Shown in pieces: positions 2,259 to 39,892 of a stretch of DNA of 64,000 nucleotides (its first letter is position 1; each line of letters opens with the position of its first letter). The notes beneath the pieces are model-generated. The model saw nothing but the letters and a program-made list of their open reading frames with translations, was not told the DNA's origin and did not search any database. The stretch spans positions 100,799 to 164,798 of the forward strand of contig PQAO01000027.1 of the NCBI GenBank assembly GCA_003104995.1, in the 5' to 3' direction. The position numbers were made by a program, and so were the translations under genes. The DNA comes from Dehalococcoidia bacterium. GTDB taxonomy: Bacteria > Chloroflexota > Dehalococcoidia > Tepidiformales > Tepidiformaceae.

Positions 2259-3959
2259 ATGCGCATGAGCAAGCTGATGCTGAAGACGCTCCGCGAACCC
2301 CCGTCGGAGGCGGAGCTCGCGAGCCACAAGCTTCTGCTCCGCGCCGGGCTCGTCACGCCGTTTGCCGCCGGACTGTACTCGTTCACGCCGGTCGGCTGGC
2401 GCGTTCTGCGCCGGATAGAGGCGATTATCCGCGAGGAGATGGACCTGAGCGGCGCGCAAGAAGTCCACCTCCCGGCCCTCAACCCGATCGAGATGTGGGA
2501 GCAGACGGGACGGGCCGAGGCAATGGGGCAGACGCTGTTCCGGCTCGCCGACCGCAAGGAACGCGGCTTCGTCCTTGGCCCCACGCACGAAGAGGGGATG
2601 AGTCTGCTCGCCTCGCGGCACATCCAGAGCTACCGGGATTTGCCAGCCACGCTCTACCAGATCCAGACCAAGTTCCGTGACGAGCCGCGGCCGCGGGGTG
2701 GCCTGGTCCGCCTCCGCGAGTTCACCATGAAGGACGCCTACAGCTTCGATACGGGCTGGGACACGCTCGATGCCAGCTACGATGCGGCCTTCGAGGCGTA
2801 CGTCCGCATCTTCCGGCGTGCCGGCGTCCCGGTGATTCCGGTTGCAGCAGATTCCGGAGCCATCGGCGGAAAGGACAGCCAGGAGTTCGTGTTCCTGACC
2901 GATGACGGTGAGGACGAAGTGCTGCTCTGTCCAGGCTGCGGATACGCGGCAAACGCCGAGAAGGCAGAGTTCACGCCGCCGCCGGCCATTGCCGGCGAGC
3001 TGTTGCCGGTGGAGCGTGTGCATACGCCCGGCCAGCGGACCATCGCGGATCTCGCCCGCTTCCTCGGCGTCGAGGAGCGCCAGACCGTCAAAGCGGTCTT
3101 CTACAAGGTCGATGGCAAGCCGGTCTTCGTTGCCATTCGGGGAGACCTCGATGTGAACGAAGTGAAACTGAAGAACGCGCTCAAGGCGAAGGACGCCGAA
3201 CCTATGGACGAGGCGATGGTCCGCGCCCTTGGGCTGGTCGCCGGGTCAGCGTCGGCGGTTGGGCTCAAAGGCATGCCGATCGTCGCCGACCCGAGCGCGG
3301 TCGAAGCGCCCAACCTGGTAGCCGGGGCGAATGAGGCGGACTACCACCTGGTGAACACGAACCACGGGCGCGACTGGACCGCTGACGTGGTCGCTGAAAT
3401 CGCCCTGGCCCGCCGCGGAGACGCCTGCGCCACGTGCGGGACGGCGCTTGATGTCCGCCGGGGGATGGAGATGGGCCACGTCTTCAAGCTGGGCACGATC
3501 TATTCCGAGGCGATCGGCGTGCACTACCTGGACGAGTCGGGAGAGCGGAAGCCGTGCGTGATGGGCTGCTACGGGATCGGTGTCGAACGAATGCTCGCGG
3601 CCGTCATCGAGGCGAACCATGACGACAACGGTATTACCTGGCCGCCCGAGGTCAGCCCATATGACGTGCACGTCGTGGCGCTCAACCTGGACCAGCCAGC
3701 CGTTATCGAGGCACTCGGGCAGCTGGAGCAGCGGCTCGGAGAGGAGAGGCTCTCGCTCCTCATCGACGACCGGGATGACTCGGCAGGGATCAAGTTCAAG
3801 GACGCCGATCTGCTGGGCATGCCGGTGCGAATCACGGTCAGCCCGCGCGCGCTGGAAAAGGGCGGCGTGGAGTTGCGTGACCGGCGCTCGGGCGAAACGC
3901 GTGTGGTAGCGCTGGATGCTGTTGCTGGCGAGGCGCGCACCATTCTCGCGCGGGCCTGA
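2259..3959 (+). CDS. proS: Proline--tRNA ligase (bacterial type with INS editing domain)
   Basis: The N-terminus [31 protein letters not shown] aligns with the canonical ProS start. Class II motifs are present ([21 protein letters not shown]). The start was moved from 2199 to the conserved Met at 2259. Confidence 0.93.
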
Positions 3960-9590: not shown

Positions 9591-10436
9591 TCAGGATGCA
9601 ACGGGAGTCTTTTTCCGGCCGCGCGCGGGTGGCGCCGGTTCGGGCTCGGGTTCGGCCGCGGCGGCCTTCCGCTTCTTCGCAGCCTCAACACTGGCCTTGA
9701 GCGCCGCCATCAGGTCAACGGCAGGGCTCGGGGCGGCGGCCTCGGCGGGTGCTACATATTCGTGGCCCTCGAGCTTGGCCTCGATGATGGACATGAGCGC
9801 GTCGCGGTACTCGTCGCGGTAGGCAGCGGGGTCGAACGGTTCGTGCAGAAGGTCGATGAGCGCGTATGCGACCTTCATCTCGGCGCCGGAAACAGCGAGT
9901 TCCTGGGGCTCGGACTCTGGCTTGCGGATCTCGTCGGCAAAGTAGAGCGTCTCCAGGACGAGGCTGCCATCCTTGGGCCGGAGTGCGCAAAGGCGCTCCT
10001 TGGTGCGAATGGCGATCTTGGCCACCGCGCTGAGCTGCTTCTCCTCGAGAGCCTTCACGAGCAGGGCGAAGGGTTTTCGCCCCAGCTCTTCGGGTTCGAC
10101 GTAGTAGCTCTTCTCGTAGTAGATGGGGTCGATCTCGTGCGCATTGACGAACGCTGTGAGCGAAATGGTGTGCTTGCTGGGAATCGGCAGCTTTTCCAGG
10201 TCCGATTCGTCGATCAGGACGAAGCGATCTTTCCCGTACTCGTAGCCTCTCACGATCTCGTCGGGTTCGAGGTCCTTGCCGTCGGTGGAGCAGCGTTTGA
10301 CCAGCCGGATGGGGCTGTTGTCGGCGGCGTGCAATTGCCGGAACGTAATGTCCTGGCTCTCTGTGGCGGTGAAGAGGCGGACCGGGATGCTGACCATCCC
10401 AAAGCTGATGGTGCCTCGCCAGATAGCGCGTGCCAT
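9591..10436 (-). CDS. ku: Ku protein (non-homologous end joining)
   Basis: MARAIWRGTISFGMVSIPVRLFTATE is the canonical bacterial Ku N-terminus. The C-terminal tail is Lys/Ala-rich. The start was moved to the conserved Met at 10436. Confidence 0.9.
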   Translation of the reverse strand: MARAIWRGTISFGMVSIPVRLFTATESQDITFRQLHAADNSPIRLVKRCSTDGKDLEPDEIVRGYEYGKDRFVLIDESDLEKLPIPSKHTISLTAFVNAHEIDPIYYEKSYYVEPEELGRKPFALLVKALEEKQLSAVAKIAIRTKERLCALRPKDGSLVLETLYFADEIRKPESEPQELAVSGAEMKVAYALIDLLHEPFDPAAYRDEYRDALMSIIEAKLEGHEYVAPAEAAAPSPAVDLMAALKASVEAAKKRKAAAAEPEPEPAPPARGRKKTPVAS

Positions 10437-10596
10437 TGGGGCCTCCGTCGCGCGTGGGTGCGCGGCCCGGGGTGAGTCCGGGCTTGACAATATAGCAGAC
10501 TCAGCGTGAAGAGTATGGGCCACAGTGGCCCGGCATGCCCCAACACCGCCGGGGCCGCGGGTTGTGGTCTAATGCGGCCGAAAGGCAGGCCAGCCG

Positions 10597-11478
10597 ATGA
10601 GCGATCTGATTCATACCGACCATCGCATCTTCGTGAGCTACATCGACAAGTCGCGTCAGTACTACGCCGCCCAGGGGTACACGAACCCCTACCGCTGGGC
10701 ATACCACCAGGACGCGCCATTCGCGCCACTCCGTAAGCCGCTTGTCGAAGCGCGAATCGGGCTCGTCACGACCGCAAGCATCGTAGACGGCGAGGTGGAG
10801 CCAGCGCCGTTCTCGGTCCCGAAAGTGGTCTTTTCGGCGCCCACCGACCCCGCTCCCGAAGGCCTGTACACGATGCACCGGTCGTGGGACAAGGTCGCCA
10901 CGCACACGGACGACCTGGACTCGTACCTCCCGATTCACCGGCTGCAAGAGGCCGCCGCGGCCAGGAGGATTGGCTCGCTTTCGCCGCGGTACTACGGCGC
11001 GCCCACGGAGTACAGCCAGCGCAAGACTAACGAAATCGACGCGCCGGAGATCCGGCGCCTGTGCCGCGAGGATGGCGTCGATGCGGCCCTGCTGGTCGCC
11101 CTCTGACCGGTCTGCCACCAGACCGTGAGTCTGGTCGCCCGGCATCTCGAACAGGCCGGTATCCCCACGGTTGTTGTGGGTTCGGCGCGGGACATCGTCG
11201 AGCAATGCGGAGTCCCCCGGTTCCTTTTCACCGACTTCCCGCTCGGGAATCCCTGCGGCGCCCCCTACGACGTTGCGATGCAGTCGGCCATTGTAGAAAT
11301 GGCGCTGGAACTCGTCGAATCGGCGAAGGCCCCGCGCACCACCGTCCAAACGCCGTTCCGCTGGCGTAACGATGACTGGCGGCGGGATTTCATGCGCGTG
11401 GACGGGGAGGACATCGACGAACTGCGGCGGCTCGGGGACGAGCGCCGAGCGGAGCAGGCCGCCAGCCACCGCGGGTGA
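10597..11478 (+). CDS. GrdB/PrdB-family (glycine/betaine/sarcosine/D-proline reductase component B-like) protein with an in-frame TGA, probably selenocysteine
   Basis: Track ORFs 10597..11106 and 11125..11478 are in the same frame and are separated only by the TGA at 11104-11106. Read-through gives ...DGVDAALLVAL-U-PVCHQTVSLVARHLEQAGIPTVVVGS..., a UxxC motif followed by the conserved 'GIPTV' segment of this family. The second ORF has only an internal GTG as a start. Confidence 0.7.
11114..11138 (+). promoter_or_regulatory. SECIS-like stem-loop downstream of the in-frame UGA
   Basis: ACCAGAC (11117-11123) pairs perfectly with GTCTGGT (11129-11135) around the loop CGUGA. The stem starts 10 nt after the UGA and can be extended by G11114-C11138 and C11115-G11137 across a C/C mismatch. 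A competing hairpin is CGGTCTG/ccac/CAGACCG (11109-11126). Confidence 0.45.
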
Positions 11479-11484
11479 CTCCCA

Positions 11485-13920
11485 TCAGGCCTGGGTCTTA
11501 TCTTTCCCGACGGCGGTGCTCAGTTCCTCCAGCACCGCCGTTACCTTCGCGAAGAGCGTTCCGACCGGGTAGTTGCCGAGCGAGTCCCGGGCACCGGCGG
11601 AGACACCCGTGACAAGTTCGATCGCCTCCTCCGCCCGGTCGGCGGCCCAGATATGGAAACGCCCGTCGCGGACGGCGTCCACCACGTCGGGGCGCAGCGT
11701 GAGGTGGACGCTGTTGGGCGCGGGGATGATAACGCCCTGGGTGCCGGTCAGTCCTCGAGCGTTACACACGTCGAAGAAGCCCTCGACCTTCTCGGTCACC
11801 CCGCCAACCGCCTGGATGCGCCCGAACTGGTCGACGGAACCGGTGACGGCGATGTCCTGGCGGATGGGTACCCCGGCAAGCGCGCACAGGATGACGATAA
11901 GCTCGGCGCAGGACGCGCTATCGCCTTCTACCTCGTCGTAACTCTGTTCGAAGGTGATGCTGGCTGTGAATGCGAGCGGCTGGTCGTGGCCGAACGTGCC
12001 GGTCAGGTAACCATTCAAAACCAACACGCCCTTGCTGTGGATGGCGCCACTGCGTTCGACTTCGCGTTCGATGGCGACGACGCCCTGGCGGCCAACCCCG
12101 GTCCGGCAACTGATGCGCATCGGTGTGCCGAAGGCGTGCGTGCCGACCTGGTAGACGGCGAGGCCGTTGATTTGCCCGGCAACCAGGCCGTCGGTCTCCA
12201 CGCGGCGGGTGCCTTCGAGGATCATTTCGCGCAGCCGGTCGGGGATCATGCTCGCCCTACCCCTGCGGGTGTCGATGGCCTTCAGGACGTGAGCGAGTTC
12301 GATGGTGGCCGATCCGTTGCTCGAAGCGAGGTGGGCCGCTTCCTTGCAGAGGTCGCTGAGTTGCCCGAAGCGGGTGCTCAGGCGGTCCTGCCGTCCGGCG
12401 AGGCGGGTGCTGAAGTGGAGCAGTTCCTCAAGGGCGTCGCGCGTGAACGGGCTGATGCTGCATTCATCGGTTACACGGCGCACAAAGCGGACATGGGCAG
12501 CGATGGTTCTGGCATCCACCGGTGCGTCAGGTTCGAACTCGGCGCGCACCTTGAAGAGCCTGCGGAACTCAGGGTCAAGCATCTCGACCATGGCCATGGT
12601 CAGCGGCTCGCCGATGAGCACGACTTTGCCCGAAAAGGGGACCCCTTCTGGTGCAAGGTTGACCGCCGGCATGGGCGTCAGCAGATCGCCTACACCCTCG
12701 ACATGCAGTTCGCGGGTCTTCAGGGTTCGCTTCAACATCAACCACGCACGGGGATCGAACAGCACATCTTCGAGCTGCAGCACCAGGAAGCCGCCGTTGG
12801 CGCGGTGAAGAGCGCCGGGGCGAATGTGGGTGAAGTCGGTGGTGAAGGAACCGAAGTGGGCTTCATAGTCGATCCGGCCGAGGAGGTTGTGGTAGGTAGG
12901 GTTGCGCTCCTCGACCACCGGCGCGCCCTTGTCCGTGTCCGCCTGGGAAACCAGGAGGTTGGCACTGTAGCGCCGGAGCAATGCCTCCCGTTCGGCGGTG
13001 ACCTGGGCGACGAGCTGGGCGGGCAGCTGGCTGAGTGCTCCCTGGGAGATCGCCTTGAACTGGGCCAGGTTCGCCATGATGTCGTCCTGGATGGCCTTGA
13101 AGTGGGCGCTGAGGTCGAACGGGCCGTAGCGTTCGTTCAGTTCCTCGATGATGTGCGCGACCACAAACGCCGCCACGTCCTGGTCCAACCGGGTGATTGC
13201 GTCTCGTGCGGAGGCGTCGAGCTTCCGAAGGTCACGCAGCGCCTGGTCCACCAATCCCTCGACAAACTCGCTGCGCTTCTCGATCTGGCCGCGCATGTCG
13301 CTGGGGAGCCCGGCGAGCACTTCCGGAGCGAGCGGCCGGCCATCCTTCCCGAGGGGCACGATCGCGAAGCCCATTGCCGTCATGTTGACGGCGAATCCCT
13401 GGGATGATGCGGCCCGCTGCATCTCCTCGATGGTGTTCTCACGGACCTTGTTCAGCGGCTCCAGCACAGCCTTCACGCGCTCCTGGTACGAGTCGCTCTC
13501 GAACGCCTGGGGGATGTTGTTCCGGCAGGCATCGGCGAGCGCGGCGAGGTCGTGATGAAGACGCGCGCCGAACCCGTCCGGGAGCGCGGCCGCCCTGGGA
13601 TGCGACGGGTCCGAGAAGTTGTGGAGGTAGACCCAATCCTGGCCGTTCGCCGCAACCGCCGCGGCAGCGTGGACCAGCTGCCGCGCGGCCGTGGTCCGCC
13701 CCGACCCGGGAAGCCCGGAGATGGCGATGTTGTACCCTTCGGCATCGATCCCGAGGCCGAAGGCGATGGCCTCCTGGGCGCGGTCCTGGCCAGTCAGGCG
13801 GTCGAGCGGCGCCACCTGGGCGCTGGATTCCGGGATCAGCGAGAGGTCCAGCACGGCGCGGAGCTGTTCGTGCCCGAGTTCCGCAGGTAGGCCGCCCGGC
13901 CGGGCTTGGGGAGATGCCAC
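11485..13920 (-). CDS. Lon-like protease, LonC-type (degenerate AAA-like domain plus S16 Ser-Lys protease domain)
   Basis: The C-terminal Lon protease signature GDSASCAELIVILCALAGVPIRQDIAVTGSVDQFGRIQAVGGVTEKVEGF carries the catalytic Ser and Lys. The N-terminal P-loop-like GLPGSGRTT has Arg where the Walker A Lys is expected. Confidence 0.85.
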   Translation of the reverse strand: MASPQARPGGLPAELGHEQLRAVLDLSLIPESSAQVAPLDRLTGQDRAQEAIAFGLGIDAEGYNIAISGLPGSGRTTAARQLVHAAAAVAANGQDWVYLHNFSDPSHPRAAALPDGFGARLHHDLAALADACRNNIPQAFESDSYQERVKAVLEPLNKVRENTIEEMQRAASSQGFAVNMTAMGFAIVPLGKDGRPLAPEVLAGLPSDMRGQIEKRSEFVEGLVDQALRDLRKLDASARDAITRLDQDVAAFVVAHIIEELNERYGPFDLSAHFKAIQDDIMANLAQFKAISQGALSQLPAQLVAQVTAEREALLRRYSANLLVSQADTDKGAPVVEERNPTYHNLLGRIDYEAHFGSFTTDFTHIRPGALHRANGGFLVLQLEDVLFDPRAWLMLKRTLKTRELHVEGVGDLLTPMPAVNLAPEGVPFSGKVVLIGEPLTMAMVEMLDPEFRRLFKVRAEFEPDAPVDARTIAAHVRFVRRVTDECSISPFTRDALEELLHFSTRLAGRQDRLSTRFGQLSDLCKEAAHLASSNGSATIELAHVLKAIDTRRGRASMIPDRLREMILEGTRRVETDGLVAGQINGLAVYQVGTHAFGTPMRISCRTGVGRQGVVAIEREVERSGAIHSKGVLVLNGYLTGTFGHDQPLAFTASITFEQSYDEVEGDSASCAELIVILCALAGVPIRQDIAVTGSVDQFGRIQAVGGVTEKVEGFFDVCNARGLTGTQGVIIPAPNSVHLTLRPDVVDAVRDGRFHIWAADRAEEAIELVTGVSAGARDSLGNYPVGTLFAKVTAVLEELSTAVGKDKTQA

Positions 13921-13999
13921 AGGTTTCCCTCCTCGGGGGAAGCCCGGGGAACGGGCCCCGACAAGGATAGCGCGGCGCTGGCGAGCGGGCAGGAGCGTA

Positions 14000-14050
14000 T
14001 TGACAAGCCGCCGGCCCCGAAATTATTGTGAATAGCAACTCACTTATCAC
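14000..14050 (+). promoter_or_regulatory. Candidate sigma-70-type promoter and TetR operator
   Basis: TTGACA (14000-14005), an 18-nt spacer, then TATTGT (14024-14029). The imperfect inverted repeat GTGAATAG (14028-14035) / CTTATCAC (14043-14050) overlaps it. All of this lies just upstream of the ATG at 14061 and is unusually AT-rich for this sequence. Confidence 0.35.
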
Positions 14051-16650: not shown

Positions 16651-16678
16651 CCGAAGCCGCCGAGGGGGAGTGGTGGGC

Positions 16679-16728
16679 CCGCCGGGATTCGAACCCAGGA
16701 CCAATCGGTTATGAGCCGGTTGCCAGTG
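16679..16728. repeat. attL: 50-bp direct repeat, a partial copy of the 3' half of tRNA-Met
   Basis: AGTGGTGGGCCCGCCGGGATTCGAACCCAGGACCAATCGGTTATGAGCCG is identical to 24854-24903. The sequence diverges immediately on both sides, and no D-arm or 5' acceptor follows, so it is not a functional tRNA. Confidence 0.85.
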
Positions 16729-16822
16729 GGAATCCAGATTCGAATCCAGCCCCTCGCCACAGACACGCCACAATTTCAGGAACAGCAGTGGCCGCCTCGG
16801 AAGACTTTCGGAGGTGGTCACC

Positions 16823-17959
16823 ATGTCACGGCGAGGAAACAACGAAGGCACGATTCGGCAACGCGCGGACGGCAAATGGGAGGCGGCTGTACAGTTCAAT
16901 GGGCGCCGCCACTGGCTAAGGGCGGCCAGCCAGGCGGAGGCGCGGCGCGGGCTCGCGGAACTCCGCCGGAAGCATGCGACGGGGGAATTGGTCCCGCCAT
17001 CGCGCCTGACCGTCGCTGAACACCTTGGGACATGGTTGGAGGTCGCTGGCGCCGACCTTCGACCGCGAACGCGCGTGGACTACGAATGGGTGACGCGCAC
17101 GTTCCTGATCCCCGCATTCGGCCACGTCCGCCTGCAACGTCTCACGCCCGCGATGGTTGCCCTCGAATTCGCACGGTTGAACACGGCCGGGACCCACAGC
17201 CCGAAAACGAGGTTGAACGCGTTTCGGACGTTCCATCGTGCCCTGACGGTCGCCCGCTATTGGGGGCTGATTGGCACCAACCCGCTTGACGCGGTAGAGG
17301 CGCCGAAGGCTTCCCGGTCCGCGCCGTCCATCTGGTCACGCGACGAAGCCGAGACGTTCCTTGCTGCCCTACAGCCGGGCGCGTGGGATGCGACGCTGTT
17401 TCTCATCCTCGCCGGTACGGGCTGCCGCATCGGGGAAGCCCTGGCCGCCCGGTGGGACGACTTCGACCGCGACACCGGCGCCCTGACCATTCGGAGGAAC
17501 ATCGTCACGATCCACGGCGCCTACGTGGAAGGGGATCCGAAGACCCAGGCCGGGAAGCGAACCGTCGTTTTGCCGGGCTTCGCCATCGATGGCCTGAAAG
17601 CGTGGCGCCCGGCGCAACTGGCCCAACGCCTGGCCGCAGGCCCATCGTGGCGCGACAGCGGCCGGATCATCACGCTTTCAGACGGGGAAAGCCCGGCGCA
17701 CCACATCGCGTATTCTCGCTTCAAAGGCACCTGTGGCGCGGCTGGAGTCCCGAAGACGCGCATGCACGACCTGAGACACTTGCACGCCTCTTTCTTGCTG
17801 TCAGCGGGCCTGCCCTTGCCAGCGGTGTCCGCCCGGCTGGGCCACGCGAACCCGGCCATCACAGCCCGCTTCTATGCCCACGCGCTGGCTGGCGTAGACT
17901 CCGCCGCGGCCACGGCGATTGACGGACTCGCGACTAGGCCGGCGGCTGCGTCTGGCTGA
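16823..17959 (+). CDS. int: Tyrosine-type site-specific recombinase (phage integrase family)
   Basis: The catalytic residues are readable: TGCRIGEA (Arg), MHDLRHLHAS (HxxR) and LGHANPAITARFYAH (His...Tyr). The N-terminal GNNEGTIRQRADGKWEA is an AP2-like arm-binding motif. GGAGG lies 8 nt before the ATG at 16823. Confidence 0.9.
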   Translation: MSRRGNNEGTIRQRADGKWEAAVQFNGRRHWLRAASQAEARRGLAELRRKHATGELVPPSRLTVAEHLGTWLEVAGADLRPRTRVDYEWVTRTFLIPAFGHVRLQRLTPAMVALEFARLNTAGTHSPKTRLNAFRTFHRALTVARYWGLIGTNPLDAVEAPKASRSAPSIWSRDEAETFLAALQPGAWDATLFLILAGTGCRIGEALAARWDDFDRDTGALTIRRNIVTIHGAYVEGDPKTQAGKRTVVLPGFAIDGLKAWRPAQLAQRLAAGPSWRDSGRIITLSDGESPAHHIAYSRFKGTCGAAGVPKTRMHDLRHLHASFLLSAGLPLPAVSARLGHANPAITARFYAHALAGVDSAAATAIDGLATRPAAASG

Positions 17960-18639
17960 CGCTTGCCCGCCAACCCGGTCACGTCGGAATACCATCGTTG
18001 GTGGGCGCTTTCCAATCCCGCGGCAAGGAGTTCATCGGTGACATCGTCGGGGATTTCCTCCGGCGGTCGGCAGACGTATTCGCACTCGTCGCGGCCCCCG
18101 AAAGTCGCCACCACGTCGTCAGGACGGATCAGCCTGCGGTAAATCCTCCCTTCCGCACGACCCCGCATGTTCGTGAACGCGTACGCGACGGCCGGATCGA
18201 TGGTCCAACTGATTCCGTTCCACGCATTCGGGCGACACCCGCGATACACAACTGTTGGCGCATCCGGGCGAGGCAGGGCGGGATCGAAGACGGGGAATCG
18301 TTGGAACAGTTCCAACACGTCCTCATCATCGATGAAGATTCCCTGACTGTTGAGCCTAGGAACGCCCTCGCTACCCTCCCAACCCTCTTTGACCAGTGCG
18401 TGTAGGAAGGGGTCCGATGGATGGTTGACCCACTTCCGTCCCCACCTCACGCAGCACCCCGGAAACGCATACCAGTACACGAACGGGAAGCGCTGACCGG
18501 AAGACAGGTAGAAAAGTAGATCTCCGGCATCCCTGGCCGCCCACGCTTGGAGGGCCTGCTTGCGCAAGAGAGGATGGAACCATTGGGCAATCTGGTTGGG
18601 GTGCGGTTCGGTGAACCGTTCGCGGGCGCGAGAAGGCAT
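17872..18639 (-). CDS. Hypothetical island cargo protein with an R / S-x-T / E-x-E (ADP-ribosyltransferase-like) pattern
   Basis: The ATG at 18639 is preceded by GAAAGGA. The C-terminal half reads VVYRG-x10-SWTIDPAVAYAF-x29-FGGRDECEYV. The 3' end overlaps the convergent integrase by 88 nt. The functional assignment is speculative. Confidence 0.45.
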   Translation of the reverse strand: MPSRARERFTEPHPNQIAQWFHPLLRKQALQAWAARDAGDLLFYLSSGQRFPFVYWYAFPGCCVRWGRKWVNHPSDPFLHALVKEGWEGSEGVPRLNSQGIFIDDEDVLELFQRFPVFDPALPRPDAPTVVYRGCRPNAWNGISWTIDPAVAYAFTNMRGRAEGRIYRRLIRPDDVVATFGGRDECEYVCRPPEEIPDDVTDELLAAGLESAHQRWYSDVTGLAGKRQPDAAAGLVASPSIAVAAAESTPASAWA

Positions 18640-18710
18640 AACGTCCTTTCCCCGTTGCGGGGCTGGCGTGTACCTCCACGGGGAAGCTTGCGGCGGTCCT
18701 CTCTCGCCAG

Positions 18711-19418
18711 TCAAGCCCCTTCAAGAACTGGCAGTTCGATCCGGCAACCGGCCAGCCAATCGGCCATTAGAGTCCGGCAGTCCTGGCGGTAGTCGGCGTC
18801 AGTCGCCCAACCGTCGGCGAATTGGGTGCGGGGGTGGGCGCGCGCAGCATGAATCAGGTCAAGGACACCGTCGCCGTGCTGCACTCCCCACGCGAGCCCC
18901 GCCAACGCAATACCTGTCATCCCTTCCTGGGTAGATGGGGCTGCGATGTCGCGCCATGACATCCTCCTTTTGCCGAAGTACGGTTCCCACGTCTGAAGCG
19001 CGCAAGCTTCCCACGGAAACAGACCGGGGAACTTGGACATGTCCGACTGCATTCGACCCATTTCGCGAACGATGAACGAGTCCACAGCCGCCCGCGAGCG
19101 CTGGGCGCTGGGATCAGCGAAGTGGAATGCGATCGCGCGCCGTGCTGAGTCCGGCTGGAAAGCACCAATTCCCATGGAGATCTGAAACGAGAAGTGGGCC
19201 GCTGCCTGCAATGCGGCCCCTGGGATCTCCTGCTGTCCAAAGAGTCCGCGTTTCGTCGGCAGCCCAGCACTCTGAAACAACCCGAGGAACAGCCAGGTCC
19301 CCAGCCACCCGGCCCATCCCTCGTATCGTCGGTCGCCTGAAGCCACCCTCAAGCCCCCAGCCGCAACTTTGGGCGGAACGGTACTCCGCGCCCTGCCCAC
19401 CCCCCAAGACAAGATCAC
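18711..19418 (-). CDS. Hypothetical island cargo protein (upstream partner of 17872..18639)
   Basis: An open frame with coding-like composition and a hydrophobic segment WAGWLGTWLFLGLF near the N-terminus. No motif is recognised. The start is uncertain; an internal Met lies at 19175. Confidence 0.4.
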   Translation of the reverse strand: MILSWGVGRARSTVPPKVAAGGLRVASGDRRYEGWAGWLGTWLFLGLFQSAGLPTKRGLFGQQEIPGAALQAAAHFSFQISMGIGAFQPDSARRAIAFHFADPSAQRSRAAVDSFIVREMGRMQSDMSKFPGLFPWEACALQTWEPYFGKRRMSWRDIAAPSTQEGMTGIALAGLAWGVQHGDGVLDLIHAARAHPRTQFADGWATDADYRQDCRTLMADWLAGCRIELPVLEGA

Positions 19419-19500
19419 ATATGGGCTGCGACACTTTGGGACTGGCAGCGGAAGCCGCCGTTTCCAGACTCGAAATGCGACGACTTACGGTTGGGTGCGA

Positions 19501-19794
19501 ATGGTGCAATGGAGTCAGGCCACCCCCACGGGATGCGCCTCCAATCCATTGGCACGGAGAACCGCTATTTCTACCGACACCCTCTACACCAAGGCCGCGG
19601 CCAGGCGCGTTGGGATCACAACCGACTCGCTTCGCGACGCAGCCGACCGCGGACGCATTCCGCACCAGTGGGCCGACATGCCTGACGGCCAGCGTTGGCG
19701 CGCCTTCAAGGTCGCCGACCTCGACGCCTACCGGGCCAAGCGCACCGCCCATCTTGAAGGGCAACTGGCTGCAGTGAAGGGCGGCGCCGCCTAG
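19501..19794 (+). CDS. Excisionase/MerR-like helix-turn-helix DNA-binding protein
   Basis: LYTKAAARRVGITTDSLRDAADRGRIPHQW...WRAFKVADLDAY matches the excisionase-family HTH pattern. The gene is divergent from the cargo cassette. The start is uncertain (19369 or 19501). Confidence 0.55.
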   Translation: MVQWSQATPTGCASNPLARRTAISTDTLYTKAAARRVGITTDSLRDAADRGRIPHQWADMPDGQRWRAFKVADLDAYRAKRTAHLEGQLAAVKGGAA

Positions 19795-19803
19795 AAAGCG
19801 AAA

Positions 19804-19825
19804 GCCCCGGCGGAAAAGCCGGGGC
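19804..19825. terminator. GC-rich hairpin after the excisionase-like gene
   Basis: GCCCCGGC / ggaaaa / GCCGGGGC forms a perfect 8-bp stem 10 nt after the stop. The T-tract is weak on the + strand, while the A-rich left flank would give a U-tract on the - strand. Confidence 0.3.
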
Positions 19826-19972
19826 CTGATGGGCGCGAATCGCGCGGACTAGACGGTTGGAATTCAGGTGGATTGATGGATCGCATAGGCATCATACCAC
19901 CCCCGAAAACCCCCCTCCTGACCGAACGGCGAAACGTGGACATTCCGCCCCCTTCTTTCCCGGTGCTTCGCG

Positions 19973-20449
19973 ATGGCGCGAACACCCATGACCCTCAGGT
20001 GCATTTCTGACTACCTCAACAACCTTCCGACGTACGGGCCGATTGAAGCCGCCACCGGCCGGCTGGGCCGACCGCTTCGCTTCACCGATGCCGACATGAT
20101 GCGCGAACGCCGCGGCCGCCTCTTACTTCTCGAATGGAAAGCCCCCGGCCAAACGGTCAACGCAGGCCAGGGTATCCTTTTCGCCAACCTCGTTCGCACC
20201 GGCCTTCACACGGTCGTTGTCGTGTGGGGCCACGAAGGCATCCCCTCCTCGTATATCCTCTGGGGCCAAATGGAATCCCCGGCCGCGACGACGCTGGATG
20301 ACTTTGCCGCCTTGCTGGTCGCATGGGACACGTGGGCGACCGTCCAGCCGCTACCCGCGGCGGCACCTGCTGAATGGCAACCATTCGCCACGTGTAAGGC
20401 TTCGCCTCAGACTCGGGCAAAGCCTGACCCCACCGGGAAGACCGCGTAG
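19973..20449 (+). CDS. VRR-NUC-like (PD-(D/E)xK) nuclease domain protein
   Basis: FTDADMMRERRGRLLLLEWKAPGQTVNAGQGILFANLVRTGLHTVVVVW fits the VRR-NUC layout: D...hhhhExK-x-pG...Q...l...G..v.vv. Confidence 0.5.
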   Translation: MARTPMTLRCISDYLNNLPTYGPIEAATGRLGRPLRFTDADMMRERRGRLLLLEWKAPGQTVNAGQGILFANLVRTGLHTVVVVWGHEGIPSSYILWGQMESPAATTLDDFAALLVAWDTWATVQPLPAAAPAEWQPFATCKASPQTRAKPDPTGKTA

Positions 20450-20450
20450 C

Positions 20451-21557
20451 TTGACGAAACGGGCGGCCGGCGCCGAACCCGAGAAGATCCACTCAAGGAA
20501 CAGCCAGCGACTCCCGGCCGCCGTCGTCATTCAATCCGACCTGGCGCGGTACGTCCTCGCCAGTGGCCAGGCCAAGAATTACCGGCTGTACGTGACGGCG
20601 CGTGAACGTCTCTGCGCTGGCGCGTTTCTTGGCAAGCACGGCCGCAGCATCAGCCCCCGAAACGGCGTTATCGCTGTGGATGCGCTGGTGCGCGTTCTCG
20701 CCGGGCTGCCCGGCCAACCGCTGGGCGACCGCCGGAACGTTCGAGCCACGCTGCAAGCTGGCGAAGGTGTCTGGTGGGACACCAGCGGGGACCGACTCCG
20801 CTTCCCGAGTCCGGACCGGCTTGCGCAGCGTCTCGGCCTGCCGTGTGCCGGTCACCGCGTCACGGCCTATCCCCTGGCCAAGCTGGCGAAGGGCGCCGCC
20901 GCTTTCCGCGATCTGTTGCGGGATGCCCTCATGCCCGCGGCCCCGAAGCGGCTGGCGAGGGCGACGCAGGCCGCGCGGACCAGTACGTCACCCTCGACGC
21001 AGAGGCGCCGTGAACGAGCGGGGAGGGCCCTCTATCACGATGGCACGGGCAAGGCCCCGGTCTCTCAGTCGCGGACTGCCATCGACATGTCGCTGTTGGT
21101 CCCTCCGACCGTCAGCACCGGCTTTGTCGCGAGCGAGTATCGGCACGAGGGCCTTTTCGCCCATCGGAACGCCGACGGCGAGGCGAAGCTATTCCGCCAG
21201 GCGCCGAAGACATATCAGGCCGGCACTCCAAGCCGGCGCCGAAAGCCAAGAAACCGCTGTGGTGGCCATCGTCTTACAGGGCACCCGTCCATCACGCGGC
21301 TTCTTCGGTACGGCGCCGACTCGAAAGCACTGGTCTCGGTGGCGCCGATCTCGGGGAGGGGGCTGGTCGCGCAACCGCGTGATCCAGCCTTCTCTTTCGA
21401 GAATTACGTCAGGGCGCGGGCGTCTTCCAGCCCGGTACAAAGTGAGCGGGTAATACAGGGGGTATGGGGGACGGCCTTGCAGGCCAGGCGGGCCGGACAA
21501 CACACCCATGTGTGTTTCTTAGGCGGGCCTGTCCCTGGCGAAAGGCGGGCAGCGTGA
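20451..21557 (+). CDS. Hypothetical protein, possible replication/HTH protein of the element
   Basis: This is the only plausible frame across the interval, with a TTG at 20451 just after the preceding stop. KRLARATQAARTSTSPSTQRRRERA resembles a Rep/HTH segment. The C-terminal half is Arg/Ser/Pro/Gly-rich and may be decaying. Confidence 0.4.
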   Translation: MTKRAAGAEPEKIHSRNSQRLPAAVVIQSDLARYVLASGQAKNYRLYVTARERLCAGAFLGKHGRSISPRNGVIAVDALVRVLAGLPGQPLGDRRNVRATLQAGEGVWWDTSGDRLRFPSPDRLAQRLGLPCAGHRVTAYPLAKLAKGAAAFRDLLRDALMPAAPKRLARATQAARTSTSPSTQRRRERAGRALYHDGTGKAPVSQSRTAIDMSLLVPPTVSTGFVASEYRHEGLFAHRNADGEAKLFRQAPKTYQAGTPSRRRKPRNRCGGHRLTGHPSITRLLRYGADSKALVSVAPISGRGLVAQPRDPAFSFENYVRARASSSPVQSERVIQGVWGTALQARRAGQHTHVCFLGGPVPGERRAA

Positions 21558-21895
21558 CCATCCAAAACCTGTTTGACGCCCTGACGCCGCCCGGCTTCTG
21601 TAGCGGCTGTGGGGGAAAGCTTACCTGTCGGTGGCGCCACCAAGGCCCGTCGCGATCCCAGCTTCGGGGCGTCTGTCCTCGCTGCGAAGGCGCCGAAGTC
21701 TCGGACTGCACTCACCACTGGATGCTTGAAACCCCAAAGGGTCGGCTGGTTCCGGGCCAGTGTCGCCACTGCGGGCAAACGCGCAGCTTCCCGGCCGACT
21801 ACCGGCCGCGACCACTCACCCCTGAGGAACGCCGGGAACAGCGGGCCATCAGAACCACCGCGAAGGAATTTGAAGATGCCGCCACGACCGACTGA
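21554..21895 (+). CDS. Double zinc-ribbon protein (CxxC...CxxC plus a CxHHW...CxxCG module)
   Basis: The GTG at 21554 overlaps the upstream stop (GTGA). The protein contains FCSGCGG...VCPRCEG and then CTHHWMLETPKGRLVPGQCRHCGQTRSF. The second module is paralogous to the core gene at 52353..52574. Confidence 0.5.
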   Translation: MTIQNLFDALTPPGFCSGCGGKLTCRWRHQGPSRSQLRGVCPRCEGAEVSDCTHHWMLETPKGRLVPGQCRHCGQTRSFPADYRPRPLTPEERREQRAIRTTAKEFEDAATTD

Positions 21896-23315
21896 CCGCC
21901 GCCTTGCCGCCCTTGAACTCGCTGTAGACGAACTCGTTCTCGGGATGTTCCGTTCACCGGACGGGCCGGGAACCATTCGCGGGAAGGCGATACGCCCAAA
22001 GGCCATCTCCGCCAACCATATCGCTGTTTCTGACCTTGAATCGGTCAACGCCTCCACCGGAAACCTGTCGGTGACCGGCAACATCGCCATGACCGCCGCC
22101 GGTTCCTTCTCGGCGGGCCAGACCGACTTCGATACTGGCGTCGGCTGGTGGCTGGACATGGCGGGTGCCACTCCCCGCTTTTCTTTGGGGAACAGCGGCG
22201 GCAGTAAGCTGACGTGGAACGGCACTACCCTCGCCATCACGGGGACCATCACCGCGACGGATGGCGAGATTGGCGGCTTTACCATCGGGGCGCAAGACCT
22301 GACGGCGGGCAGCGGGGCCAGCCAGGTCGGCTTCTCCTCCTCCGGTTCCGTCCGGATCTGGTCAGGCTCGGCGACGCCCTCGGCGGCCCCGTTCCAGGTG
22401 TCCAGCGCGGGTGTTCTCACGGCCACCGGAGCCACCATCAAGTCCGGCGCCGGTAACGCCCGCGCGGAACTGACGGCGGTCAATGGCGTGTCGGTGTACG
22501 ACTCAGGCGGGACGGTGCGCGGGCGTCTCTCCACGGACGGGTCCGGCTTTCTCGGTAGTACCAACGGCCTCAGCACCGGCGCCGCGGTGCGCTGGACTAC
22601 AGGCGGAGTCGCGACCATCAACGCCGACGCCATCACCACGGGGACGATCAACGCCGGGACGATTACCGTGTCGAACCTCAACGCAACCAACCTGACGACC
22701 GGCACGCTCGGCAACGGTGGGTCGGGAATCGGCCTCGGCGGCACGAATGGGCTTTCCATCAGCGGCAACCTCACTCTGGCCTCGGGCGGGAAGATCATCG
22801 ATGCCGACGGTTCCTATTGGGACCAGAACGGGATCGTCCTCAAGTCCGGCGGGGTCTTCGGCGACTCCATCAAGTGGCAGGTGTCCGGGGTAGACAAGGG
22901 CTCCATCTACGCATCCGTCAACGATGTGGTGCTGAACTTTCCAAGCGGAGGAAGCGTCTACGCGGGGTCCTCTGATGCGGGCATCGTGTACGGCGGCGGC
23001 AGCCTTCGGGCGGGCACCGCCTATACCTGGGGCACCGCCAAACACTATCCGGGCTACGGGACCAACGGACAGCAATTCACGTACTACATCGAGGGTGGTG
23101 GGGCAGGCGCCATCATCACCAATGGCATCGGCATCGGCGGGATGCTCGGCATCAGCAGCGGCAACACCATCAACCTCATTGCGCCTGGCACGGGCGGTTC
23201 CGCAACCAACTGGTCGGGCTTCACGACGGCGAACGTTCCCGACAAGTCCGCCGGGTACTTCATCATCCAACTCGGAGGGACGAACTACCGCGTCCCGTTC
23301 TACGCCAATGCTTAG
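21876..23315 (+). CDS. Phage tail-fibre-like protein
   Basis: Gly/Thr/Ser-rich repeated beta-strand sequence with the typical fibre motif ITGTITATDGEIGGFTIGAQDL and many G-x-h-x-h-x repeats. The ATG is at 21876. Confidence 0.65.
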   Translation: MPPRPTDRRLAALELAVDELVLGMFRSPDGPGTIRGKAIRPKAISANHIAVSDLESVNASTGNLSVTGNIAMTAAGSFSAGQTDFDTGVGWWLDMAGATPRFSLGNSGGSKLTWNGTTLAITGTITATDGEIGGFTIGAQDLTAGSGASQVGFSSSGSVRIWSGSATPSAAPFQVSSAGVLTATGATIKSGAGNARAELTAVNGVSVYDSGGTVRGRLSTDGSGFLGSTNGLSTGAAVRWTTGGVATINADAITTGTINAGTITVSNLNATNLTTGTLGNGGSGIGLGGTNGLSISGNLTLASGGKIIDADGSYWDQNGIVLKSGGVFGDSIKWQVSGVDKGSIYASVNDVVLNFPSGGSVYAGSSDAGIVYGGGSLRAGTAYTWGTAKHYPGYGTNGQQFTYYIEGGGAGAIITNGIGIGGMLGISSGNTINLIAPGTGGSATNWSGFTTANVPDKSAGYFIIQLGGTNYRVPFYANA

Positions 23316-23324
23316 CGACCGTCT

Positions 23325-23726
23325 CTATCTCCGCCAGGTGTCACCGACCGACACGGTACTGTCCGGCGCCACGGTGACCACGTAGGACCCGCCGGTTCCT
23401 GTTCGGACAGTCACCTCGATTCGGTCGTTTAGCTTCAACTGGTCAGGGATGCCCGCGCAACCGTCCTGCTGATACCTGCGGATCGTCCCCGAAGAAGGCG
23501 GCCCCATGGCCTGTTTGTCAATGTCCCAACGTGGCGCCAGTTCGCAAAGCCTGCTGACTCCAACCACCACATCGGGCACTGGCGTTGCTGCCGGGACAGC
23601 TGTCGGGGCGGGTTCCTCGGGCACGTACCAGTGCAACGACTGGCGGTCCGCCACCGCGAACGACGCCACTCCTACCAGCACCAGCGCAGCGGAGAGAACC
23701 CAGACAGGCGGAAGGAATCGGCGCAT
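23325..23726 (-). CDS. Small membrane-anchored or secreted protein
   Basis: The N-terminus MRRFLPPVWVLSAALVLVGVASFAVA looks like a signal peptide or signal anchor. The gene is convergent with the tail-fibre-like gene. No motif is recognised. Confidence 0.5.
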   Translation of the reverse strand: MRRFLPPVWVLSAALVLVGVASFAVADRQSLHWYVPEEPAPTAVPAATPVPDVVVGVSRLCELAPRWDIDKQAMGPPSSGTIRRYQQDGCAGIPDQLKLNDRIEVTVRTGTGGSYVVTVAPDSTVSVGDTWRR

Positions 23727-24343
23727 CTGGATGCATCATACATCGCCTTTGGCGTCATCTGTTGACGACATGGGTCGCGCTGCGTGCGAGTCTCGGACGG
23801 CAGTCCGATACATGCGCAGCAGACTCGCCCGCGAGCGGGGACTATCTACGCCCACCCTGGCCTCCGTTCGCGGCGCGCGTTCCGGCGGGCTGATCCGGGC
23901 CGAACCACTGCTAGGCGGAGTAAACACTTCTGCGTAGGTGGCCCCTACCGGTGCGCCCCGGCCAGGGGTCGGACCTTGTCCGAGTCTCGGGCGGAGCCCG
24001 ATACCAGCCATCGCGGCCGAATCGCATTTCAAAATGGACGACGGTACCAAAGCGATCCCGCTGTGCTACACGCCGGACGGGAATCGTCCGAAGCGGGATC
24101 GAAGGCGCGACATAGTACTATGGTCACTTCGGACACCACCCCGAAGGAACCCCCTGGCACCCCCTCCCCCGGCTGGCAGTCGAGGCTTCCGAGTGCTGAC
24201 GCGCGGCGGTCGGTGGGGCGGGCTGGTGGCCGGGCCTGGCGATGTGGGGCGGCCGCCGCGGGCCGCCATGCAAGCCGGTGGACGACGCTTCTATATGCCT
24301 GACAGACACGGCTACTGTGCTTGAAAATCATGACGATAAGTGC

Positions 24344-24372
24344 TTGACTACATGCGGGAAGCGGCGTAGTGT
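24344..24372 (+). promoter_or_regulatory. Candidate sigma-70-type promoter for the small gene at 24426
   Basis: TTGACT (24344-24349), a 17-nt spacer, then TAGTGT (24367-24372). It sits in a locally AT-richer patch (TTGAAAATCATGACGATAAG). Confidence 0.3.
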
Positions 24373-24425
24373 CCCCATTGAAGGAACGGCAAGGACCGGG
24401 CCTATCACGACCTCGGAGATGCGAC

Positions 24426-24650
24426 ATGGTTAAGACTCTCGACACGAACGCCCTTGATGCCGCCCTGGCGGTCATGTGCCGCATGCACGGCGCGGAAGCT
24501 GTCATCCAGCAGGCAATCATCGGCCGCGCCGTTCTGGGCGCACTGAACGACGATGGCGCCGATCTCACCGTCTGGCGTGAAGGTGGCAAGATTGCGTTGC
24601 TCAACCAAGCTGGCGATGGCGAAGTGGTCACCGTCGAAATCAGCTTCTAG
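24426..24650 (+). CDS. Small hypothetical protein (74 aa) at the attR end of the element
   Basis: GGAG (24415-24418) lies 7 nt before the ATG at 24426. The composition is balanced (MVKTLDTNALDAALAVMCRMHGAEAVIQQ...). A hairpin with a T-tract follows the stop. Confidence 0.45.
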   Translation: MVKTLDTNALDAALAVMCRMHGAEAVIQQAIIGRAVLGALNDDGADLTVWREGGKIALLNQAGDGEVVTVEISF

Positions 24651-24682
24651 ACGGCCCCGGCCGCATGGAGGTACAGCGGGAT

Positions 24683-24709
24683 AGCCCGGTCGTGAGGCCG
24701 GGCTTTTCT
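24683..24709 (+). terminator. Rho-independent terminator candidate
   Basis: AGCCCGG (24683-24689) pairs with CCGGGCT (24698-24704) and is followed by TTTCT. It lies 33 nt after the stop of the 74-aa gene. Confidence 0.45.
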
Positions 24710-24853
24710 GCGCTGTCGCGCGGGGCTGAATGGGCGTAGAATTGATGGCAGAGGCAAGCGGACGGGGCGCCACTCGCGCCACTCCGCTACCACAGTTGTT
24801 CCCTGCTGGAGTGACACAGCAAACGGGCCGAACGGCCGCCCGCCGGAATCGAA

Positions 24854-24903
24854 AGTGGTGGGCCCGCCGGGATTCGAACCCAGGACCAATCGGTTATGAG
24901 CCG
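24854..24903. repeat. attR: 50-bp direct repeat inside the intact tRNA-Met
   Basis: Identical to 16679-16728. It covers the tRNA from the CCA end through the anticodon loop. Confidence 0.85.
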
Positions 24904-24931
24904 ACCGCTCTCACCGCTGAGCTACGGGCCC
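24856..24931 (-). tRNA. tRNA-Met (anticodon CAT), CCA encoded
   Basis: The reverse complement GGGCCCGTAGCTCAGCGGTGAGAGCGGTCGGCTCATAACCGATTGGTCCTGGGTTCGAATCCCGGCGGGCCCACCA folds into a cloverleaf: 7-bp acceptor, GCTC/GAGC D-stem, CTCATAA anticodon loop, TTCGAAT T-loop. It lacks the initiator features (the 1:72 pair is intact, and there is no GGG/CCC anticodon stem). I cannot exclude a lysidine-modified Ile2 identity. Confidence 0.9.
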
Positions 24932-24991: not shown

Positions 24992-25576
<585 letters not shown>

Positions 25577-38764: not shown

Positions 38765-39849
38765 CCGAGGAACCTTGTGTAGTCATCTATGGCGGCGCGG
38801 CCGGAAGCATCCACCAGTTCCAACTGCGCGGAACCCGCATCGAGGAAGCTCTCCCCCGACCAGCGCATCACTGCCAGGGTCGAGCCATCGGGCGCGTACG
38901 CCAGGGGAACGTCGAATCCGCCGGCATCGGCCTTGAGAGCCTGGGTTGTGACGCCGCCGGATTCCTGGCCCGGTTCGACGCCGAAGGTGGGCCGGCCGCT
39001 CTTTGGCTCCCAGGCCACGCCCAGCGCCGTGACTTCGGCAGAGAGCGCCTGTGCCTGGACGGATGTGGCGCCGCTCAGCGAAACGGTCCGCGCAAGGTAG
39101 CGCAGGCCGGCTTCGGTGTTCGCTTCAACGTAGGCAAGCCGGGCGCCATCGGGGCTTAGCTGCCAGTCGCGAGTGATGGCTGTCCCCAGCGAGAGCGTGT
39201 CTTTGCCATCGCGCGCGACGGTCGAGCCGCGGCCATCGATGACCACGGCGATCAGCGAGCCACTGGGCTCGTATCCAACCGGGAACACCGCCAGCACCGC
39301 GTCGCGCGTCCAGAGCACGTCCTCGGTGCCGCCGAGGGCCACGCGCAGGACCTGTATCGCGCCGAACGAGGTGCCGGAAGCTACACCTCGCGTGACCACA
39401 ACCGACTGGCTATCTGGAGCCCAGACGGGCACCTGGTTTGGCTCGATGTTCAGTGCTGCGCGGAAGAGCTCGCCAGTGACCAGGTCGACAGTGATCAACG
39501 ATGCCACCGGCCGTGTGGCGGTCCCGGCGTCGACCGCGACCACCGCCACCTTCGTGCCGTCCGGAGAGACCGAGCCGGTGGCGCTCATGCCATCGATGTG
39601 CGGGACCCGGGCAACCTCGGTAATCGCCCCGGGATTCTCGGCCCAGGCGACGGCAACGATGTCGTACTGGCCCTCGGTCCGCGAGACCACGGCGTAGTTG
39701 CCGGAAGGCGCGCTCGCAAAGGCAGTGCGGGTGGCCACCCGCTGCCCGGAGATGCCGAAGGCAGTGGCAACGATTGGCGCGATGGCGATGATGGCGGCCA
39801 ACACCGTCACTCCGATGATGAGGCGGGAAACACTGGTGTGTGCGGCCAT
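38749..39849 (-). CDS. Membrane-anchored PD40/TolB-like beta-propeller protein
   Basis: The N-terminal anchor is LIIGVTVLAAIIAIAPIVATAF. Repeated SPDG blades are visible (VSPDGTKVAVV, WAPDSQSVVV, LSPDGARLAYV, YAPDGSTLAVM). The start was moved to the ATG at 39849. Confidence 0.6.
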   Translation of the reverse strand: MAAHTSVSRLIIGVTVLAAIIAIAPIVATAFGISGQRVATRTAFASAPSGNYAVVSRTEGQYDIVAVAWAENPGAITEVARVPHIDGMSATGSVSPDGTKVAVVAVDAGTATRPVASLITVDLVTGELFRAALNIEPNQVPVWAPDSQSVVVTRGVASGTSFGAIQVLRVALGGTEDVLWTRDAVLAVFPVGYEPSGSLIAVVIDGRGSTVARDGKDTLSLGTAITRDWQLSPDGARLAYVEANTEAGLRYLARTVSLSGATSVQAQALSAEVTALGVAWEPKSGRPTFGVEPGQESGGVTTQALKADAGGFDVPLAYAPDGSTLAVMRWSGESFLDAGSAQLELVDASGRAAIDDYTRFLGWARR

Positions 39850-39892
39850 GGTCCGTCGTGAAACAGCCAAAGAGCGGGCTCCGTACGTTTGA

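Follow-up and report, generated by a model that had tools for sequence, protein, structure and literature searches.

We analysed a 64,000-nucleotide stretch of a Dehalococcoidia bacterium genome (contig PQAO01000027.1, positions 100,799 to 164,798; hereafter the window), focusing on positions 10597-11478, where an in-frame UGA very probably encodes selenocysteine (Sec) in a protein related to the reductase subunits PrdB and GrdB. A single reading frame holds two open reading frames (ORFs), 10597..11106 with an ATG start and 11125..11478 with a GTG start, and the sole stop between them is the TGA at 11104-11106. Read-through across this TGA gives a 293-codon protein (...EDGVDAALLVAL-U-PVCHQTVSLVARHLE...) in which the UGA is flanked as ...LLVAL-U-PVCHQTVSLVARHLE...; the UGA-spanning peptide of the predicted product is LLVAL-U-PVCHQTVSLVAR. 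The start at ATG 10597 agrees with the database products P0012/P0013 and with 16 public contigs carrying an identical 169-aa N-terminal product. The region upstream of GTG 11125 is devoid of a purine-rich Shine-Dalgarno-like stretch, and the GTG itself sits in the loop of a hairpin (11114-11138). Full-length Cys homologues (~291 aa) are colinear with both halves of 10597..11478. A first-pass annotation of this DNA had read the locus in the same way, and the sequence bears it out: the two ORFs share one frame with the TGA as sole interruption, the second has neither an ATG nor a Shine-Dalgarno sequence of its own, its apparent initiator methionine being an internal GTG, and the UGA opens a UxxC motif (U-P-V-C, codons 170-173).

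Two further pairs of same-frame ORFs joined by a TGA were rejected as selenoprotein candidates: aconitase/IDH (26855-30106/30107-31360, TGA 30104-30106) and DHODH/ADH (52401-51316/51315-50314, TGA 51316-51318, minus strand). Both are plain adjacent genes, so that the window has no recoding candidate other than 10597-11478.

A search of 5.8 billion proteins returned more than 6000 matches, and the residue aligned with the UGA was counted in the 120 matches listed. Among these, the column holds Cys in 112, within a C-P-V-C-H-Q-T motif; six (P0012, P0013, P0014, P0023, P0025 and P0039, 83-99% identical) stop exactly at ...LLVAL; and one (P0016) shows W, although its DNA, locus L059, has TGA. The column never holds a Trp encoded by TGG. 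Note that the W of P0016 was made by the public gene call from the homologous TGA (L059 829-831, a locus flagged 'translates to query: no'); it is thus by mere chance that the selenoprotein of this low-GC contig appears at full length in the database, and W stands where Sec would be. At the DNA level, 50 related loci were retrieved from genome and metagenome collections by means of peptide patterns that exclude the motif, and all 50 carry TGA at the equivalent of codon 170, at 47-98% protein identity and across at least five lineages of bacteria. These loci come from metagenome-assembled genomes (MAGs) labelled Chloroflexota, Dehalococcoidia, Anaerolineaceae, Syntrophaceae, Blastocatellia, Gammaproteobacteria and Deltaproteobacteria, the closest MAG relatives of the window gene being 84-89% identical. 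The alignment of homologues, which the first-pass annotation had put forward as a check, has therefore been made, with Cys (112 of the 120 listed) or TGA (50/50 loci) at the position of the UGA.

The sequence beyond the UGA evolves as coding sequence. Indeed, the ratio of nonsynonymous to synonymous substitution rates (dN/dS), computed against eight relatives, is 0.06-0.22 over the 100 codons 3' of the UGA, and the 60 codons 5' of it fall in the same range. The TGA and the hairpin are the same in four assemblies made independently, one an NCBI MAG and the others from three SRA runs, which show 0-4 mismatches over the 882 nt of the gene. Finally, TGA is the terminator of 14 of the 26 Pfam-verified genes in the window, so UGA is a normal stop here and has not been reassigned.

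Directly downstream of the UGA, the RNA can form a hairpin resembling a bacterial selenocysteine insertion sequence (SECIS). A 7-bp stem, ACCAGAC (11117-11123) paired with GUCUGGU (11129-11135), starts 10 nt past the UGA and closes on the loop CGUGA (11124-11128). The 25-nt element 11114-11138 folds as ((.(((((((.....))))))).)) with an energy of -11.8 kcal/mol and z = -3.5, none of 200 shuffles being as stable. Every part of this structure had been spotted beforehand (stem, spacing, loop and an extension by two pairs across a C/C mismatch), and folding, which had been proposed along with it as a check, yielded z = -3.5 for the 25-nt hairpin.

The hairpin is constrained beyond what the protein requires. 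In 37 unique Sec-type sequences, codons +6 to +9 (ACC GUG AGU CUG) have no variation at the third position (entropy 0 bits) and codons +4 and +5 have little (0.2-0.4 bits), compared to ~1.0-1.8 bits for most codons beyond them in either direction, with a few lower. The Ser codon in this stretch is always AGU in Sec forms and mostly AGC or UCG in Cys forms, AGU being otherwise rare in this GC-rich setting. The stem also covaries. In an alignment that takes in four published Sargasso sequences, 95.8% of the hairpin cells are paired, compared to 20-36% when the partners are slid by 1-3 columns, and the covariation score exceeds that of 500/500 shuffles. Pair 18-28 is never broken (GC 26, AU 2, GU 1), pair 15-31 reads CG 24, UG 2, UA 1 and other 2, and compensatory changes of both kinds (C:G to U:A and G:C to A:U) occur, with two pairs showing double-sided changes. 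The second loop position is always G (loops CGUGA, CGGGA or UGUAG). In the Sargasso sequence AACY01093821, a Ser-to-Gly change (AGU>GGU) leaves the stem untouched. The hairpin singled out in the first-pass annotation is therefore the one that is fixed at synonymous sites, covaries, and is variable or absent in Cys forms.

The same annotation had pointed to a second, mutually exclusive hairpin, CGGUCUG/CCAC/CAGACCG. This hairpin does exist; however, it lies at 11108-11125, about one base off the 11109-11126 given for it, and it is a coding by-product found in Cys-type genes as well. Across the alignment, 94-96% of its cells are paired, but there are 7-12 unpaired cells and covariation is weaker. 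RNAfold also picks it in the Cys-type genes L056, L057, L058 and L060, and in AACY01491494 it is disrupted (C×A) although the SECIS stem stays paired (A:U). The 5' arm of the alternative hairpin begins 1 nt past the UGA, and an arm so placed should be within the ribosome while the UGA occupies the A site. We consequently rejected it as the SECIS, since Cys forms have it too, several Sec forms disrupt it with no compensating change and its 5' arm lies too near the UGA. We judge it to be a by-product of the P-V-C-H-Q-T codons that is not specific to Sec.

Cys-type genes served as controls for the SECIS-like hairpin. In seven unique ones (with TGC or TGT), the PVCHQ(T/S)xSL peptide is the same but is spelled with ACG, AGC, UCG and CUC codons, and no comparable hairpin is found in four of the seven. 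One (L056 10508-10542), which belongs to a subclade nested among Sec forms, has the AGU Ser codon and a 5-bp CAGAC/GUCUG hairpin with the loop CACGA; to judge from its sequence, this looks like a decaying relic SECIS left after a Sec-to-Cys replacement. What sets the Sec forms apart in these comparisons is the invariant 7-bp stem closed on a 5-nt loop. We also observed that the Cys-type homologue P0003 (L057 1081-3380) is duplicated in tandem, with copies of 291 aa at 1081-1956 and 2309-3184 that are identical to each other; after each comes a fragment of an acetolactate-synthase small subunit, 57 aa long.

Several observations weigh against a selenoprotein with a dedicated recoding hairpin. 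The longer 57-nt fold reaches a z of only -1.6, and each of the two double-sided compensatory changes occurs in few sequences. No curated Rfam SECIS model matched, either over the whole window at the gathering threshold or in a permissive scan of 11060-11200, whose lone chance match was a togavirus frameshift element (E = 3.5). Furthermore, three of the seven Cys-type genes (L056, L060 and L063) still fold some hairpin, with a different loop. Such hairpin potential arises because the His-Gln codons CAC-CAG are the reverse complement of the Leu-Val codons CUG-GUG: as far as the codons tell, part of the pairing is inherent in the coding sequence. As to the selenocysteine machinery, tRNA-Sec was not found by ARAGORN in the window and 34 loci, nor with Rfam, and E. 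coli SelA, SelB and SelD had no tblastn match in the window and related loci, 615 kb that make up a small part of any genome, so that this negative is uninformative for the whole genome. Chloroflexi have been reported to contain selenoproteins (PMC1794560).

Taken together, these data lead us to conclude with high confidence that 10597-11478 is one gene for a 293-residue selenoprotein with a conserved recoding hairpin. If the TGA were instead a true stop, the locus would be a pseudogene or a truncated gene giving only a 169-residue N-terminal fragment, in line with public gene calls, which annotate separate 169-aa and 117-aa genes, and with the Sec machinery not being seen in the window and related loci. 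A pseudogene, however, would not hold both the stop and an intact downstream frame over such divergence: the TGA is kept in 50 loci across phyla, purifying selection acts on the 100 codons that follow (dN/dS 0.06-0.22), and the invariant active-site-like motifs PVCHQT and FTDFPLGNPCG come after it, which makes a true stop extremely unlikely. The same gene calls could be taken to mean that two proteins are made, one of 169 residues and one of 117 residues from GTG 11125, as both ORFs are predicted by gene callers. This has scarcely any chance of being correct, given that no Shine-Dalgarno-like sequence precedes this GTG, a hairpin-loop codon; that all homologues have the same P-V-C-H-Q-T over the six codons between the TGA and the GTG, which are hence translated; and that all Cys homologues are single polypeptides.

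Nor does a sequencing or assembly error for TGC or TGT account for the TGA. Apart from the single-base difference from a Cys codon, nothing speaks for one, and its probability is close to nil with four independent assemblies from different samples agreeing on the TGA and the hairpin (0-4 mismatches over 882 nt) and with TGA also in 50 diverged loci. The UGA could finally be recoded without selenium, through a reassigned code or near-cognate insertion of Trp or Cys, to give a full-length protein that is not a selenoprotein; one gene caller did assign W to a homologous TGA (P0016/L059), and no Sec machinery was found in the window and related loci. We consider this highly unlikely: TGA terminates 14/26 Pfam-verified window genes, the homologue column is Cys and never a TGG-encoded Trp, the family is listed as a selenoprotein family in Sec-using organisms, and plain read-through does not explain a conserved, covarying hairpin at SECIS spacing.

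For a selenoprotein gene of this kind, the bacterial SECIS mechanism suggests the following sequence of events. When a ribosome reaches UGA170, the mRNA just beyond would fold into the hairpin 11114-11138, which would recruit SelB·GTP·Sec-tRNA(Sec), leading to Sec insertion and no termination. In the protein, the most likely chemistry is that the Sec170 selenolate would attack the substrate as a nucleophile, that Cys173 would resolve the adduct to a selenenylsulfide and that a cellular thiol system would re-reduce the latter. Cys-type relatives may perform the same chemistry with a thiol. A third conserved residue, Cys220, is a possible redox or active-site residue, as suggested by its conservation. 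The features of the locus are collected in Table 1.

Table 1. Features of the predicted selenoprotein locus, in window coordinates
Feature	Position	Strand	Remarks
Likely ribosome-binding site, purine-rich GAAAGGCAGG	10580..10589	+	7-17 nt 5' of ATG 10597; predicted from sequence
PrdB/GrdB-like selenoprotein coding sequence (predicted)	10597..11478	+	293 codons; Sec = codon 170; terminal TGA 11476-11478
In-frame UGA, codon 170, probably read as selenocysteine	11104..11106	+	first residue of U-P-V-C; aligns with Cys
Alternative hairpin CGGUCUG/CCAC/CAGACCG	11108..11125	+	arms 11108-11114 / 11119-11125; overlaps the SECIS 5' arm
Cys173 codon TGC	11113..11115	+	probable resolving cysteine of UxxC; invariant in alignments A1, A3 and A4
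SECIS-like hairpin	11114..11138	+	G11114-C11138, C11115-G11137, C11116/C11136 mismatch, 7-bp stem, loop CGUGA
Cys220 codon	11254..11256	+	in the nearly invariant F-T-D-F-P-L-G-N-P-C-G; conserved in at least 90% of A3 and A4 sequences

Profile searches, for which the translation carried Cys in place of the UGA, placed the protein in the GrdB/PrdB family, as had been proposed, though below the equivalog cut-off: TIGR04483 (PrdB) matched with E = 2.3e-31 (109 bits against a cut-off of 300). The GrdH, TIGR01918, GrdB and GrdF profiles matched with E = 4e-10 to 2.5e-7, TIGR01918 scoring 35.6 bits for a cut-off of 65.45, and Pfam GRDB (PF07355) with E = 6e-4 (19.6 bits, cut-off 22). By these profile scores, the window protein is a real relative of selenoprotein B and PrdB that falls below every curated cut-off.

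In a neighbour-joining tree, the Sec forms group into a single large clade. Cys subclades branch from within this clade, and the Bradyrhizobium-type Cys proteins fall outside. As all Sec forms share a nearly identical hairpin, the simplest history suggested by this rough tree would be one origin of Sec and its SECIS, followed by several Sec-to-Cys reversions. An AlphaFold2 model was built on a 75%-identical Cys homologue, P0001 (pLDDT 90, pTM 0.89). In this model, Cys177, which corresponds to the Sec, is flanked by strand 170-174 and by the N-terminal end of helix 178-193 (P0001 numbering), a predicted placement that is typical of a redox-active CxxC or UxxC dyad. A sequence search of the PDB gave no match below E = 0.08, and a Foldseek search of the PDB with the P0001 model returned nothing below E = 0.04, with a best TM of 0.29. 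Many polar residues are invariant across the family alignments, as is, nearly, a third Cys; this conservation suggests a protein with a defined substrate pocket and not a general-purpose thiol oxidoreductase.

In the window, the gene lies between Ku (9591-10568, minus strand) and a LonC-like protease (11485-14022, minus strand), the two neighbours that the first-pass annotation had named. It is divergent from a Ku-LigD pair (non-homologous end joining), with fewer than 80 nt between the start codons (window 9591-10596). The Ku-LigD arrangement is kept in the Chloroflexota relatives L001, L002, L008, L012 and L066-L069 and not in other lineages; LigD-Ku upstream together with a LonC-like gene downstream is confined to the Chloroflexota group. 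In other lineages, the neighbours are ordinary metabolic genes: an NfnAB/SudAB-like pair, a short-chain dehydrogenase/reductase, an enoyl-CoA hydratase or a CoA-transferase. Clustering of neighbours across lineages revealed no conserved neighbour. The two largest clusters were discarded as artefacts of ORF calling, consisting of the target's own C-terminal halves and of antisense shadow ORFs.

The gene was likewise found to stand alone, as first proposed, with no grdA, grdE or prdA partner in the window or in related loci. Indeed, no grd or prd genes occur within the 64-kb window, neither prdA nor any other prd gene is among the called genes of loci L012 and L056-L063, and PrdA, PrdC, GrdA and GrdE were not found near the gene in any lineage examined (more than 50 loci). 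In a Syntrophaceae-like lineage (L037 9969-11378 and L051 13374-14324, both minus strand, and ~9 related loci), an NfnAB/SudAB-like pair lies ~2.5 kb downstream on the opposite strand; one of its proteins has Fer4_20 and Pyr_redox_2 domains, the other DHODB_Fe-S_bind and NAD_binding_1. The pair was seen in this lineage alone; it may serve as an electron donor, or its position may be coincidental.

Elsewhere in the window, an 8.2-kb segment is flanked by the two copies of a perfect 50-nt direct repeat (16669-16718 = 24854-24903). The segment has a tyrosine integrase (16715-17959) at its start and includes a 576-aa ORF (21585-23315) without a Pfam match. The repeat copy at 24854-24903 is the 3' half of a tRNA-Met(CAT) gene (24856-24931, minus strand), and relative L012 has the acyl-CoA dehydrogenase, tRNA-Met and major facilitator superfamily (MFS) genes without the 8.2-kb segment. 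By its layout, 16669-24903 looks like an integrated mobile element with attL/attR in tRNA-Met. Between the tRNA-Met and MFS genes, a GC-rich imperfect short-period repeat (25028-25197; CCGCCGCCACCG-like units in seven overlapping copies) is probably a Gly/Pro-rich low-complexity coding stretch on one strand. Finally, the region 36935-40215 (minus strand) holds two ORFs with a high GC content at third codon positions, 36938-38782 (615 aa) and 38752-40215 (488 aa), with no Pfam match at E <= 1e-5.

The family to which the window protein belongs is on record. The Sargasso Sea selenoproteome paper (Zhang, Gladyshev et al. 2005, PMC1088965) lists 42 'Proline reductase PrdB' genes with a UXXC motif, and the Global Ocean Sampling (GOS) paper (2008, PMC2398784) reports 235 Sec and 110 Cys forms (pfam07355, UxxC) and places 'Proline reductase PrdB' among the most abundant marine selenoprotein families. 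The supplements of both papers hold sequences of the window protein's family, with the uPVCHQT motif. One of these, AACY01093821, reads ...DAALLVPLuPVCHQTVGLVARHLESNGIPTVIAGSARDIIEQCGVPRFLFTDFPLGNP... and matches the window protein by BLASTP with 59% identity over 175 aa (E = 1e-78). Anaeromyxobacter and Geobacter uraniumreducens have likewise been recorded as having 'Proline reductase' selenoproteins, and recent reviews file the family under D-proline reductase (TIGR04483, UxxC; PMC13188914, PMC9312934). The family, its Sec and its SECIS are thus already known, and what is new here is one more orthologue and the documentation of its stand-alone context.

The practical outcome is chiefly an annotation correction: public calls split the gene into 169-aa and 117-aa 'hypothetical proteins' and no curated hidden Markov model reaches its cut-off, and as a result the selenoprotein is routinely missed even though the family was published in 2005. 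The locus also gives a clean picture of a family-specific bacterial SECIS, in which one hairpin is almost unchanged across phyla in Sec forms. This SECIS appears to be built on codons already prone to pair (His-Gln with Leu-Val) and to decay after Sec-to-Cys replacement. As to function, the stand-alone PrdB-like family may be an autonomous Sec- or Cys-dependent reductase with its own substrate and not a subunit of proline or glycine reductase, a proposal for which we see an even chance. It would concern a family that is widespread in soil, sediment and marine bacteria, has no solved fold and works without a pyruvoyl partner, and most of its members would then be wrongly called 'proline reductase PrdB' in the literature.

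The bacterial SECIS was reportedly defined on E. coli fdhF, by Liu and co-workers in 1998 among others, and bSECISearch is said to go back to Zhang and Gladyshev in 2005. Like an fdhF-type SECIS, the window hairpin lies within the coding sequence directly 3' of the UGA; its stem starts 10 nt past the UGA, compared to ~11 nt in fdhF, its apical loop begins 17 nt past the UGA with G-U at loop positions 2-3, and the stem is kept by covariation in the PrdB-like family. By contrast with the fdhF type, it has no bulged U in the upper stem, its loop is the 5-nt CGUGA, and no Rfam model matches it.

At the protein level, homology to GrdB, GrdF and GrdH (PF07355, TIGR01918) is detectable in the C-terminal half, and the Sec is likewise followed by a Cys three residues on; GOS reads labelled GrdB show U-P-V/M-C-H. 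The window protein is nevertheless a remote relative outside the boundaries of these families, below their curated cut-offs, with ~290 aa versus ~430 aa and with neither grdA nor grdE near its gene. Its motif is UxxC, compared to UxxCxxC for GrdB (PMC13188914). The resemblance to the D-proline reductase PrdB of C. sticklandii and C. difficile extends further, since residues 41-258 align with positions 19-236 of the 238 in TIGR04483 and both proteins have Sec in a UxxC motif (PMC13188914, PMC9312934). However, with 109 bits against an equivalog cut-off of 300, the window protein is homologous to this PrdB and not its equivalog; it is ~50 residues longer at the ends, and no prdA (encoding the pyruvoyl proprotein), prdC or other prd genes lie nearby. 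The two also differ in their settings: Cys-form relatives of the window protein are named from Bradyrhizobium, and members of its family are abundant in ocean metagenome reads. To our knowledge, neither Bradyrhizobium nor ocean waters are settings for Stickland fermentation.

The closest match is with the Sargasso/GOS family, with which the window protein shares the Sec column, the uPVCHQTV(S/G)LVARHLE motif and the FTDFPLGNP block, as well as the occurrence of both Sec and Cys forms. The hairpin ACCAGAC-loop-GUCUGGU follows the UGA in the published Sargasso DNA too, and its stem recurs in the 50 related loci. The window copy differs in that it comes from a Chloroflexota/Dehalococcoidia-like genome and not from marine reads, and the stand-alone context, documented here in more than 50 loci, adds to papers that do not discuss the missing PrdA partners. 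On these sequence comparisons, the window protein is a member of the environmental 'Proline reductase PrdB' UxxC family, and not a clostridial PrdB working with PrdA.

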